Assembly: GCA_000004695.1 (NCBI GenBank)
Contig: CM000151.3
Location: 2,048,001 to 2,112,000 of the forward strand
Length of the DNA: 64,000 nt
Reading direction: 5' to 3'
Origin: Dictyostelium discoideum
Taxonomy: Eukaryota
This document shows, piece after piece, positions 3,969 through 44,079 of this stretch (position 1 is its first letter; each line of letters starts with the position of its first letter). A program made the translations under genes and the position numbers. A model generated the notes under the pieces. The model was not told where the DNA came from and did no database searches. It saw only the letters and a program-made list of their open reading frames with translations.

Positions 3969-6900
3969 TTATAAGCCAATATCACATTTAACAAACTGTT
4001 GATCATAATAAAAATCATCTTCTTGATTAATATTATCATCTTCATTGTAATAATCACATTCCCAACCATTTTCATTACAATCAAATAAATCATCTTGATA
4101 ATATTGGTATTGTTCTTGTTCTACTCCTACATCATCTTTTTCTTGGTAATCATTATAAAAGAAATCTTCTCCTTGATAATCATCAAATGAGAAATTACGT
4201 TGTTTATCGTTAAAATCTTTTTCAAATTCATCAAATGTTAAATTTCTATGATTGAAACCATTACCATTACTATTATTATTATTAAAAAACTTCATTAAAT
4301 TTTGTATATCTTCACGAGTTGAATCTGATTTTGAAATTATTTTTTTAAATTCTTTAATTAATTCATCTTGATCTCCAACTATTTGTAAATTAGTTTCAAA
4401 TACCTTATAATAAGATTCATCAATCTTTGCCAAGAATACTAAAGTATGTAAAATTTGAAAATTAATTTGATAATTATTACTTTCATCTGATAATAAATTT
4501 TTTAATAATTGTTCAAAAAACTATAATAATAAAATAAATAAAAATTAATAAATGTAATATGATTATATGTTATTATTGAAATTAACTACTTACTTTTAAT
4601 TTTTTAAATTGATTTTTTAATTTTTTTGAACATTTAATTGGATTATGAAGTGAAATGATAACATTTGCCAATGGTATATAAAATTTAATTGATGGATTTA
4701 AAAACAAAGCAACTTTAATACCATTTAATAATGTTGAAATAACCTTATCATTCATTTTAATATTTAAAGATAAAGTAACTAAAAACTTTACAACTATTAT
4801 ACTAATTTGTAGAAGTGTTGTTAAAAAATGAGGATTATCAATACAAAGATTATGAAAAATTGGTAAAAGGTTTGATAGGGATTCAATGATTTTTGAATTT
4901 AAAATACAACCAATTCTAATTACTGATGGATCATTCTTTTCTTTTACTTTATTTAAATTTGTTTCTCTCTATCAATAATTGTGAAATTCTTATAAGGGTC
5001 TGAGAATTTATATGAATTTACAATTATTTTTAAACATTTTAAAACTGAAACATATGACGGCTGATCAGTTTCAATCACTTGAACTTTACCAAAATCTACT
5101 AAAAATTTATTAACTGTTTCAATTGGAATTAAATCTGGTGCTTTTCTAAATCTATAAATTTCTTCAAGTATTGTATAATCCATTATACCATCATTTATTA
5201 AATAATTATTTGAAAATAATTTTAAAAACTTTTCATGATTTGGTTTAACAATTGTTGATTCAATATATTCATTCTCTATTTCATTAAATAATAACATTTC
5301 TTTTTGTTTATAATTATCATCAATAAATTGGTATTGTTGTTGGTGTGCTTGATTGTAATTATTTATTTCATCCATTGGTATTGCATTTTCATATGACTCG
5401 TAATTTGATGATTCATTATCTTGGTAAATATCAATTTGTTGTTCTTGCTCTTGTTTTTGTTGTTGTTGCTGTTTTGAATCTTCATTACTATTTCCAAATT
5501 GTGTATATTCAATACTAATATTAAGTTCATCTTCAATTAGATCCTCTTGGAATATATCCATTTCAATTTGATATTTTTTATGAATTTTATTTTTTTCATG
5601 ATTGCTAATTAATTCAATATGACCATTTTGATTTTTTGGGTGAATTGAATAATAACTTGGTGGTTCATCACTTGGAAGTGTTGTTGTTGTTGCTTTTGTT
5701 GTTGGTGTTGTTATTGCTTTTTGATATAAATTATCGTTATTTAAAAACATATTACATGATAGTAATAGTGGTTGTTGTGGTTGATGTTGCTCTTTGACTA
5801 CCAATTTTTCAAAAATTGGTTGATATTGCTCTTTGACCACCAATTCTTCAAAAATTGGTTTCATTTGTAAGAAATCCAACATTTCTACAATATATTTTAA
5901 TTTTTGTTCATCTCCACCTTGATTGTAACAATTTAAAAAAACAATAGACCTTAATTGGCAAAGTGGAAAGTTGTTAAAAAAATCTTTAATTAATTCTACA
6001 CAATACTATTTAAAAAAAAAAAAAATAATAATAATAATAAAAGTGTGTTAATTTAAATAATTTTTTTTATAATATATATGTATTAATACGTACTGTAATA
6101 ATTAAAAATGGGGTTTTAATTGGGTCTGAAAGGATATTAAAATCAATATCTCCAGAAACAAAACCTTTGTTTACGACATCAATATCGAAACCATTTGATA
6201 AATTTGATTTCAATATATAATTCTGATTGAAAATTTTAAAAAACTTTGAAAAAGTAACTTTTTCAATATTTAATTTTATTGAATATGATAAACTCTTTTT
6301 ATCAACGAAATCATAATGATTTGAAATCGAGTTGATATCAAGGAATTGAATTTCCTTATAATTAATATTACAATCTTGGAAATATGATAAAAAACTATTA
6401 TTTATTATAGAATTAATATAATATAATAAACAATAGTATATTTCTATATATATTTGTAAAAGATTTAAAAATTATATATTAATATTCAAATATAAAAATA
6501 AAAAAATAAAAATAAAAATAAAAAAATAACTTACCACAAGATATATTTGATTTTATAAATTGAAAGTCATTTTCACTTTGGCAATTTAATATTTTATTTT
6601 TCAATGATTTTGAATCTTTACTTGAAAGATATAAAAGTCTTTCTACTTGTATTAAAATATCATAATTTTTGTAATCTTGATATTGTAAATTTGAAATTAA
6701 TTCAACTGAATTATAAATTTCAATTATTCTATTTTTTAATGGAATATCAGTAACAACCGATTCTAATAATCTTAAAAATTTATCTTTTTTTTCAAATGCA
6801 TCATATTGAACATATCGAAAACATTGAACCTAAAATAAAAAAAAAATAAAATAAAATAAAACCAAATTAGTTTTTTTTTTTTTTTTTTTTTAAAGGAAAA

Positions 6901-39495: not shown

Positions 39496-40079
39496 TATTT
39501 TTTTTTTAATATTTATTTTTTAATTTTCTTTTTTAGTAAAAAAAAAAAGAGAAAATGGAAAAAAAAAAAATAATAATAAAAAAAGGTAAGTTGAAAAAAA
39601 AAAAAAAAAAAAATTAAAAATTAAAAAATTACTTTTTTATCAATAGATCTGTTTTGAAGTTTATTTAATAATTATTTTATATTATTATAGAGTATTTATC
39701 AATAATCTATAACTATTTTTTTGGAATTAAAAAAAATTAAAAAAATTAAAAAAACATATCAGAATAAAAAATTTAAAAATATCAAAAAAAGAATAATAAT
39801 AGGATTTTTATTAAAGCTTTAATCACATCAGAATTAAATTACCATTTAAAGGGCTTTAATTCTAAAAAAAAAAAAAAAAATGAAATAAATAAAAAACATT
39901 TTTAAAAATTAAAATAAAATGAATAAAATGAAATAAACCAAAAATTTTAAAAAAAAACAGATAATATATTTTATTTTATTTTATTTTATTTTATTTTATT
40001 TTGTTTTATTTTATTTTATTACTATAATTTTTTATAGTATTTATACTATTACAGATATTAAATCTTGAGATTAGAATGA

Positions 40080-41768
40080 TTAAGGTGTATTAGTACCACC
40101 AGATAAATTGATATGATTACTACCATTTATACTACCATTACTACTACTACTTGGAATACTTCCACCATTGTTATTATTATTATTAATAATTGGTGATTGT
40201 GGCATACCAGTACTACCATTAATTAATTGAGGTATTGATTGTTGTGGTACATTCATTGCTTGTAATAATAAATCCAATTTAGTATTTAAAATATTAATAT
40301 TTTGTTGAATTGACTCAAATTTCTTCTTTTCCTTTATTTTAGCTTCCTTTTTCCAAGTATCTAAATCTTTTTTATGAACTTGTTGACCCATTAATTTCAA
40401 TTCAAAAGTTACACCAGTATTTTTAGCGGATTGAATTTGATCCAAATACTTTATTCTTGCCCTTTGAACTTTCATTAATAAATCTGCATAATCACATAAT
40501 GTCTCCTTCATCCTTAATACTTGGTTGAATTATCATAATTTCATCTTTAAATCTCGATGGATCAATACCATCAGTTTCAATTAAACCTGGCTTTTGATCA
40601 ATAAACATTAACACTAAATCATAAATGTCAAGTGAATTTGGAGTGAATAATAATAACAATGATTTCATTGTTCTCTCCCATCTAGTTAATAAATATCTCT
40701 TTGTTTTTTGTTTCTTTTCAAATGTATTACTAATATTTTGATAAGAATCTGAAATGATTGCAACAAACATATTAACTAAAATGAAAAACATAAAAATTGT
40801 AAATAATAAATAATACTATATATAATAACATCAAAAAAATAAAATAAAATATAATTATTAGTATATCTTTAATAATAATAATAGTAATAATTATAATTAT
40901 ACTTACAATTGGACCTAATGCTCTATTTGTATATGACATTGCTTCATAATCTGGTGGATTACCAATAATGAATTGTAATAATGTACCAAGACTAGTAACG
41001 AAGCCATTGAATGAGGCAATATCAGTACCAAAAGTTAACCAACCTGAAAATAAGAAACCCAACATCATAATACAAAACATAATTGTAAATGTAATTAATT
41101 GAAGTCTAGATTGTGAAATTGCAATCCATAAAATATATAATCTTCTATGTACTACTAAAAATCTAAATGTTTTAAATGACATTAATAAAATATCTTAATA
41201 ATAAAAATAAAAAATAAAAAATTAAAATTAATAAAACTAAATAATATTAAAATAGGTATTTTAAAAAATAATAAAAAATAATAATTACTAATTGCAGAAA
41301 TTTGGTATAAAACCAATGCAGTTTGACCTAAATTTTCAAGATATAATGGATAATCAGTAGTAGTTTGAATTTGAGAATTAATATTTAAATCTCTTGAATT
41401 GTCCCCTAAAAATGCTAAATATAATGCAATTGAAGCAATAAATAACTATTAAAAAAAAAAAAAAAAAAAGAAAATTAGTACTTTTTTATTTTTTATTTTA
41501 TTTTATTTTATTTTTTATGTAAACTTACAGTTAAATTTATAACATCGAAAATATTCTTAAAATTTGAAATATAGAATTTAAATCTACCCAATTTAAAGTC
41601 AATTCTAGCTTCATTAACAAAGTAATAGAAATAATATAAAATAAAAATAAAAAAGGAAACTTCTAAAAATCCTCTAAATTTATCCAATGCATCCATATAT
41701 AATTGAATTCTATAAGTTCTAATTGAATAATAGGGATTAACTGATCCTGATGCTGTCCACTCTGTTAA

Positions 41769-41808
<40 letters not shown>

Positions 41809-42097
41809 AGTTTTTTTTATTTTATTTTATTTATATAAAAATTATTAATTATTAATTATATTACCATTGTAAATACTGAAGTTCTAGATTGGAAATTTAA
41901 ATTTAATGTTGAGAATGAAATTATAACAGATCTAGTTTGAATATCGAAAAAACCATTATCAATTAATGATTCAACCCCTGTTTTAATATCTGAAACTGGT
42001 ATATCAATATAATATCCACTACGATCCCATACATATTGATTATGACCTAATTTTATTATTATCATTATTTTTGGTAAATTATTTATTTAATTAATAA

Positions 42098-42147
<50 letters not shown>

Positions 42148-42413
42148 CAAAAAAACATACCAAAAACATAAGAACCATGTGAATTTGAAGTATAGGTATA
42201 CATATCATTAGGACCAAATGGTGATCTATCTTTTGTATCTTTATCATAATTATTTGAGTAACATGTTAAATTAAAACCATTATTACTACATGAATCAGGT
42301 TTTACTCTTGCAGTTCTAATTCTAATTACATTTCCAATAATTTTATTCATTGCATCATTATTTTCCAATGACATATCTGATATTGATTCACAAAATGTTG
42401 AATTTAAATACTG

Positions 42414-42453
<40 letters not shown>

Positions 42454-42794
42454 AGTAAAATTTATTAAATTAAATAAATATTAAAATAATATTATTTACA
42501 GTTATAAAATCAGATGGATTATTAATTTCAAGGTATTGGCTATCTTGACTAAATAAAATTTGATTTTTTAGGGATGTATTGATAATGAATAATGATTGAG
42601 GATTTAATTGAAGTACAACGATTAATACGAATACAACAAAGAATACAAGGTGAATAATTAAATCTTTAACTAATCTTGCATTTCTTTGAGTTTCAACTGC
42701 TGCCAATAATGTTGCTTTCTCTTCTCTGGTTTTATTCTCTAATGCTTTAACAGCTTCAAGTCTTTGAGAGAAAACTGTCCTCTTTAATGTATTC

Positions 42795-42796
<2 letters not shown>
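40080..42796 (-). CDS. pkd2: Polycystin-2 (PKD2/TRPP) cation channel homologue, 7 exons; C-terminal coiled-coil tail is in a different frame (apparent frameshift)
   Basis: Exons: 42796..42500, 42410..42161, 42046..41865, 41768..41529, 41445..41289, 41193..40907 (1413 nt, phases consistent) and 40815..40492. Beyond that is a 143-aa coiled-coil/low-complexity ORF 40511..40080 in the +1 frame. The first six donors are GTAAAT, GTATGT, GTAATA, GTAAGT, GTAATT and GTAAGT. The pore/S6 region YYLLFTIFMFFILVNMFVAIISDSY matches human PKD2 [25 protein letters not shown]. A polycystin-domain and an S1 region are present. Confidence 0.75.
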
Positions 42797-42843
<47 letters not shown>

Positions 42844-44079
42844 TTTATATTATTAAATTCGAATAGGTTGAAATATAAATATAAAAAAGGATAAAAATTA
42901 ATATATGAAAAAAAAAAAAATTATAAAAAGGAGGGAGATAAAAGTGAAAAAGTCTTTTTTTCTTTTTTTCTTTTTTTTTTTTTTTTTTGAATTTTATGTT
43001 TTTTTTTTTTTTTTTTTAATTTTTTTTTTTTTTCCTATTTTTTTATTTTATATTATTTTAATTTTATATTTTGATTTTTTTTTTTTTTTGATTTTTTGAT
43101 TTTTTAATTGATCAATAATAAATTTAAAAATAGAACAGACTTTAAAAAAAAACTTAAAAAAAAAATAATAAAAATAAAAAAAAATAAAAATAAAACAATT
43201 TAAAAAAAAAATATAAATAATAAAATTAATTTTACATTTTTTTTAGTCAAATTATTGTTTAAATATTTAAACAATAAAATTTACCACACAAAAAGTTGTT
43301 TATTTTTTTTTTTTTTTTTTTTTTAAGTGATAAAAAAAGAAAAAAAATAAATAAAAAAAAAAAAAAATAAAAAAAAAACAAAAAAAAATTAAAAAAAAAA
43401 AAATGTAATTTTAGTAACCCCCTTGATTGGGTCAGTCTTCTATTTTTAGGAAATTAGAGAACTTAAAAAAAATAAGTTGTGAAAATAAGGTTGTATAAAA
43501 AAAAAAATAAAAAAAATTAAAAAAAAATGAAAATTTTTGGTAATGGTTTGTCGTTGCATGAAAGAGAAAAAAAAAAAAAAAAAAAGATATTTTCATTTGG
43601 AAAAAAAAAATTTTTTTAAAAAATATTGATGAAAACATTAAAATCTAACACTCAAAAAAAAAAAAAAATGAAAATACATTTTTAATTTTAGTTTAATTTT
43701 TTTATAGAAAAATAAAAAAAAAAAAAAAAATGGTGAATGTAATCATTCTAGTTCGTCAAAATAAAAAAACAATCAGAAAAAATGGATGATAAAAAATTTT
43801 AAAAATAAAATAAAAAAAAAAAAAAAAAAAATTCAAAAAAACAGAATGGTTATATTCATTTTTTTTATGTATAATATCATTTTGTTTATTTTTGAGTGAT
43901 CTATTTTTAAATACTAAATCCATATTAAAAATAAATATAATTAAATCAATGTGTGACAAAAAAAAAAATAAAAAAAAAATAAAAACAAAAAAAAAAAAAA
44001 AATTAAAATATTTTTTTGCAATGATTAAATTTTTATTTTTCCGTATTTTTTTATTTTTTTTTTTTTTAATTTGCCAAAA

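Follow-up and report, generated by a model that had tools for sequence, protein, structure and literature searches.

A probable reference-sequence error splits the reading frame of the Dictyostelium discoideum polycystin-2 gene pkd2

The polycystin-2 gene of Dictyostelium discoideum (pkd2/trpP) is split into two reading frames in the AX4 reference sequence. This break is absent from all other sequences of the gene that we compared, and from this comparison we infer, with a probability of about 0.8, that it is a local error in the reference. Two bases set the reference apart at this place, and a 52-nt "intron" in the gene model, almost certainly an annotation artefact, hides the break from users of the database protein. 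The analysed window comprises 64,000 nt of contig CM000151.3 (assembly GCA_000004695.1, positions 2,048,001 to 2,112,000 of the forward strand), and all positions given without a locus name refer to it.

Results

The frame break lies in a eukaryotic gene of the minus strand that is AT-rich and has introns (Table 1), and exhaustive spliced mapping of XP_644933.1 onto the window gave exactly one solution. Pfam assigned residues 275-498 to PKD_channel (PF08016; 92.9 bits vs a cut-off of 22.4) and residues 88-263 to Polycystin_dom (PF20519; 45.5 bits vs a cut-off of 23.6), i.e., the TOP domain formed by the extracellular loop between S1 and S2; a match to Ion_trans (34.9 bits) was above its own cut-off, too. 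With both the PKD_channel and the Polycystin (TOP) domain present, the protein belongs to the polycystin-2/TRPP family, and the matches in protein searches with pkd2 were dictyostelid polycystin-2 orthologues. The gene is the already characterised Dictyostelium polycystin-2.

The channel frame runs as ...PSRFKDEIMIIQPSIKDEGDIM (in a longer read-out, ...GIDPSRFKDEIMIIQPSIKDEGDIM) into a TGA at 40494..40492. A first-pass annotation of this DNA had claimed that the coiled-coil tail of the protein is out of frame with the channel core, encoded by a 143-aa ORF in the +1 frame; the stop, the displaced ORF, the short overlap of the two frames and the putative coiled coil with its low-complexity end are all present in the window as described. 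The ORF translates as MKETLCDYADLLMKVQRARIKYLDQIQ...KLDLLLQAMN..., followed by an Asn/Ser/Gly-rich tail. Its YYADLLMKV motif, its coiled-coil heptads and its low-complexity N/S/G end identify it as the genuine C-terminal tail of PKD2. A run of 149 stop-free codons in the tail frame is expected by chance with P ~2e-7 at the local base composition, therefore this frame is not open by accident, and its conservation extends over the Dictyostelia. In the segment KEKKKFESIQQNINILNTKLDLLLQAMN, the residues F-I-I-L-L-L-M fall on a/d positions of the heptads, and seven of the eight a/d positions are hydrophobic, in keeping with a coiled coil. A C-terminal coiled coil was also annotated for XP_644933.1 in PMC3919814. 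A sequence search of the PDB with the tail yielded no meaningful match to any solved structure.

Table 1. Features of pkd2 and of its frame junction in the window.
Feature	Position	Strand	Remarks
pkd2/trpP (DDB_G0272999) coding region	40080..42796	minus	ATG at 42796, stop at 40082..40080
Real intron	42499..42411	minus	spliced mapping of XP_644933.1
Real intron	42160..42047	minus	spliced mapping of XP_644933.1
Real intron	41864..41769	minus	spliced mapping of XP_644933.1
Real intron	41528..41446	minus	spliced mapping of XP_644933.1
Real intron	41288..41194	minus	spliced mapping of XP_644933.1
Real intron	40906..40816	minus	spliced mapping of XP_644933.1
C vs A in L006	42212	minus	codon 166, Pro (FGPNDM) vs Thr (FGTNDM)
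Ancestral phase-2 intron site	40541/40540	minus	between AGATTTAAAGA and TGAAATTATG; inside the Asp codon of RFKD/E
Annotated seventh "intron", almost certainly spurious	40520..40469	minus	52 nt, GC 28.8%, GTATTAAG...ATGAAAG; spans the frame break
143-aa tail ORF, +1 frame	40080..40511	minus	overlaps the channel frame by 20 nt
Extra G	40503	minus	GAAGGA[G]ACATT; +1 frame shift; window only
Premature TGA	40492..40494	minus	closes the uncorrected channel frame after 578 residues (...SIKDEGDIM, then stop)
G for T	40493	minus	TGT[G/T]ATTAT; T in all other sequences

Outside the window, the junction is read in one frame. In D. citrinum, D. dimigraforme, both pkd2 copies of D. cf. discoideum and three other D. 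discoideum assemblies the protein continues as ...IIQPSIKDE(G/A)TLCYYADLLMKVQRARIKYLDQ..., and the bases orthologous to 40520..40469 are translated in frame as SIKDE(G/A)TLCYYADLLMKV. On the DNA level, the relatives and the other D. discoideum sequences have GAAGGA-ACATTATGTTAT or GAAGCA-ACTTTATGTTAT at this place (GAAGGA/GCA-ACA/T TTATGTTAT in D. citrinum, D. dimigraforme and both D. cf. discoideum copies); the window reads GAAGGAGACATTATGTGAT, unlike every relative and every independent D. discoideum sequence in the comparison. Changes among the relatives within these 52 nt are mostly synonymous. In YYADLLMKV, the residues Y, D, L and K (pattern Y-ADL--K) hardly vary among the Dictyostelia, including Cavenderia, Tieghemostelium and Acytostelium, and the Tyr encoded by the codon around 40493 is itself near-invariant.

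Two base differences separate the window from these sequences. The extra G at 40503 shifts the frame, and 10 nt away the G at 40493 provides the middle base of the premature TGA and, read in the tail frame, replaces the conserved Tyr by Asp. The 90%-identity cluster that includes the best match of the protein searches holds XP_644933.1 (P0023, 698 aa) and three proteins of other D. discoideum assemblies, namely P0017 and P0018, each of 718 aa, and P0022 with 715 aa. These three, as well as P0024, an ORF derived from Logan, run through the junction in a single frame as ...IIQPSIKDEGTLCYYADLLMKVQRARIK... Deleting the G at 40503 from the window opens an ORF of 715 aa, which differs from P0022 only by P166T and D579Y and regains SIKDEGTLCYYADLLMKV.

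Some further observations concern the structure of the gene in the relatives. About 20 nt upstream of the annotated 52-nt "intron" lies the site of an ancestral intron (Table 1). This AT-rich intron is kept in D. citrinum (96 nt, L001 6228-6323) and D. dimigraforme (~113 nt, L003 ~5567-5679), and D. purpureum has an intron of ~69 nt at the same site (L007 4585-4653, GTAAGT...TTTTAG). It is precisely missing in the window and in both D. cf. discoideum copies, which, judged from these sequences, looks like a clean loss, of recent date and within group-4 Dictyostelia, of the intron nearest the 3' end. D. cf. discoideum has two full-length pkd2 genes in tandem (L002 1906-5188 and 6001-8847), encoding 721 and 717 aa with 88% and 94% identity to the protein of the window; the window, D. 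citrinum and D. dimigraforme have one pkd2 each at the syntenic place. Several deposited orthologue models break in the vicinity of the ancestral intron or right at it: in D. citrinum the gene was deposited as two split proteins of 471 and 231 aa (L001 3666-5858 and 6001-6792), and the D. purpureum model (562 aa, L007 2501-4587) ends with ...TFKG at the start of the ancestral intron, 99 nt before the end of the contig. Because these deposited models are broken, database orthologues of the C-terminal tail need to be treated with care.

The most telling comparison is that with independent sequences of D. discoideum itself. The Logan contigs L004 (SRR26869267; shared identically by 8 samples) and L005 (SRR28564543, one further run) were aligned to positions 40899..39991, and over these 908 and 901 nt, which include intron and 3'-UTR sequence, all bases are equal but for the two at the junction: these at least nine runs, none of them proven to be AX4, lack the G at 40503 and have T at 40493. 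Since L004 and L005 are identical to the window elsewhere, while P0017 and P0018 differ from it in several other residues of the tail, the contigs carry the window's own haplotype. They thus represent independent sequences of the same haplotype that depart from the reference at the disputed site only, the pattern by which a reference error is recognised. The D. discoideum assembly GCA_054883475.1 (L006, likewise not proven to be AX4) shows the same two differences. Over 8.7 kb, the indel at 40503 is the sole one in coding sequence, and all other indels between L006 and the window are homopolymers in introns or UTRs.

Both changes could instead be real and private to AX4 or its immediate ancestors, brought about by one complex two-base mutation. 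They are truly in the window, the contigs free of the frameshift are not proven to come from AX4, laboratory strains of Dictyostelium are known for private mutations, and background effects were invoked for the conflicting phenotypes of pkd2/trpP (PMC5312093). Against this, at least nine Logan samples and L006 share the haplotype of the window and have neither change, no frameshifted ORF is recorded in any sample, two independent mutations within 11 nt are improbable, and all relatives show strong purifying selection on the segment. We consider a mutation of AX4 unlikely on these grounds. It predicts GAAGGAGACATTATGTGATTAT as the form of the junction in AX4, with both G bases (40503 and 40493), and a reference error predicts GAAGGAACATTATGTTATTAT. 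In the same unlikely case, AX4 would make a PKD2 of 578 aa devoid of YYADLLMKV and the coiled coil, probably a hypomorphic channel. The frameshifted products of 99 and 143 aa were absent from the gene-position index and from a collection of 15 billion proteins. The same index contains neither the reference protein nor a 75-aa ORF with P166, therefore the AX4 assembly lies outside it, and the index is uninformative on AX4.

The comparison with L006 revealed other differences as well. At codon 166 the window has Pro, and Thr is found in the three other D. discoideum assemblies, D. cf. discoideum and D. dimigraforme; D. purpureum has Pro. This difference may represent either a true polymorphism or another error of the reference, and the ORF of the P166 exon is not in the Logan index. 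The A/T homopolymers at 42829-42841, 42444-42451, 42137-42147, 41800-41806 and 43016-43020, located in the pkd2 5' UTR and introns 1-3, exceed their counterparts in GCA_054883475.1 by 7-13 nt. The difference always has the same direction, which suggests a compression of homopolymers in the newer assembly and not biology. Approximately eight mismatches between the window and L006 are concentrated within 75 nt (42863-42937) of the low-complexity promoter upstream of the pkd2 ATG, compared to about five in the remainder of the 8.7 kb; this cluster may reflect an alignment slip in repeats or a hypervariable patch.

The reference gene model deals with the break by splicing. The window translates residue for residue into XP_644933.1/Q558Y3 (698 aa) only if 40520..40469 is removed, and because the translated model equals XP_644933.1, the window is the AX4 reference sequence or identical to it. 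At the join the reference model reads ...IMIIQP-I-QRARIKYLDQ...: the removal drops 18 residues (SIKDEGTLCYYADLLMKV) and puts one Ile in their place. The codons cut out, SIKDEGTLC(D/Y)YADLLMKV, comprise the tail motif that is best conserved in the Dictyostelia. The reference protein, which the first-pass annotation had named as a check on the break, does not end at ...DEGDIM, and the true junction is missing from it as well.

It would follow from the model that 40520..40469 is a genuine 52-nt spliceosomal intron in AX4 and the 698-aa protein a natural one. The piece begins with GT, ends with AG and restores the frame, and the deposited model uses it. However, the six real introns of pkd2 are 83-114 nt long, with a GC content of 3-9%, 5' ends of GTAA or GTAT and 3' ends of AG, whereas the putative seventh intron is shorter and, at 29% GC, resembles the flanking exons (23-27%); no AT-rich or T-rich tract precedes its AG. 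In the other D. discoideum strains and in every relative these bases are translated in frame and conserved, and their removal by splicing would cost the protein the best-conserved motif of its tail. Moreover, an enumeration of all frame-restoring pairs found ~50 GT..AG pairs near the break, so one that restores the frame is expected by chance. None of the enumerated pairs is intron-like, and we rejected a rescue by splicing through any of them; a 37-nt candidate, 40520..40484, was dropped, as the reference model uses 40520..40469. A genuine intron is thus very improbable, and the 52-nt piece is almost certainly an annotation artefact that hides the frame break. The first-pass annotation had correctly seen that the junction is not AT-rich, but erred in stating that it holds no GT...AG pair. 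Its claim that no intron rescues the frame is right in the biological sense, given that the bridging "intron" is an artefact, and wrong for the reference model, which joins the frames by just such a pair.

Programmed +1 ribosomal frameshifting at GGA-G-ACA, by which ribosomes would pass from the channel core into the tail, is hardly credible: the tail does lie in the +1 frame and a shift at 40503 would exactly recreate the ancestral DEG-TLC, but neither the relatives nor any of the other D. discoideum sequences have the break, which leaves no conserved site, the zero-frame stop comes three codons later than the shift would have to occur, the flanking RNA folds unremarkably (z = 0.11), and no shift-prone motif is recognisable. 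To our knowledge, GGA GAC ATT is not a +1 motif. With a break that occurs in the window only, the first-pass annotation was right to rank recoding as the least likely explanation. Programmed frameshifting and a genuine intron are both effectively excluded.

Discussion

A local error in the AX4 reference would account for the frame break in the following way. A G inserted in error at 40503 and a G miscalled for T at 40493 would have entered the reference and split one ancestral frame into a 578-codon "channel" ORF and a "tail" ORF in the +1 frame. An annotation pipeline unable to translate through this place would then have bridged the two frames with the nearest GT..AG pair that worked, the artificial 52-nt "intron", and the bridged model would have become the 698-aa XP_644933.1/Q558Y3, minus 18 conserved residues and plus one Ile. 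The real protein would have 715 aa in a single frame, with neither splicing nor recoding at the junction. The first-pass annotation had listed a single-nucleotide assembly error first among its explanations. An error is indeed favoured, with the G at 40503 absent elsewhere, but it would involve two changes 10 nt apart instead of one. Two spurious G calls within 11 nt probably fit one poor read better than two independent mutations. The chromosome of the window was assembled from Sanger shotgun reads in 2002-2005.

Experiments with tagged proteins bear on the tail as such. In PMC3919814, a C-terminal Flag fusion in the DH1 background was located at the plasma membrane, as was a C-terminal GFP fusion made on RT-PCR cDNA (Ax2) in PMC5312093, and in both studies the pkd2/trpP coding sequence rescued the knockout. 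Because these C-terminal fusions are expressed, the tail is translated in frame in laboratory strains. The strains used were DH1 and Ax2, not AX4, and the fusions would fit the annotated 52-nt splice, too. The sequence discrepancy goes unmentioned in the main texts of PMC5312093, PMC3919814 and PMC11012017, and a literature search for frameshift errors in the AX4 reference found nothing useful.

The biological significance of the break is low: neither recoding nor unusual splicing was found, and nothing points to a natural truncation. Its practical consequences concern XP_644933.1/Q558Y3, a model protein related to ADPKD, which misses 18 residues and has a wrong Ile shortly before the coiled coil. 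Whoever designs synthetic genes or mutagenesis, aligns the protein or predicts its structure from the database entry takes over this deletion. It is advisable to correct or flag both the gene model and bases 40503 and 40493 of the reference, and the 715-aa correction may merit being passed on to dictyBase, UniProt and RefSeq. Should the lesion be true for AX4 after all, this strain would carry a natural C-terminal-truncation allele of a polycystin-2 channel, which might contribute to strain-dependent pkd2 phenotypes.

Compared to known systems, the protein agrees with the polycystin-2 channels (TRPP/PKD2; Lima et al. 2014, Traynor & Kay 2017) in its PKD_channel and Polycystin_dom domains and its C-terminal heptad segment, and differs in that the Dictyostelium PKD2 has no EF-hand and no ER-retention motif (PMC3919814). 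With programmed +1 frameshifting, as in antizyme or yeast Ty1 and EST3, the junction shares the geometry only, i.e., a downstream ORF in the +1 frame and a zero-frame stop soon after the overlap; in contrast to these cases, the pkd2 break is not conserved, lacks a shift-prone codon context and a stimulatory structure, and has its stop off the shift site. The closest likeness is to those indels of Sanger-era references that are masked by short spurious introns. As in these, an exon that is otherwise conserved carries an indel of one base, a short, exon-like "intron" restores the frame at the expense of conserved residues, and independent assemblies read straight through. Nothing material sets pkd2 apart from them; it adds a second base change 10 nt away, which turns Tyr into Asp and supplies the middle base of the TGA. 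The pkd2 break is therefore very probably an instance of this familiar masked-indel artefact and not a new biological feature.
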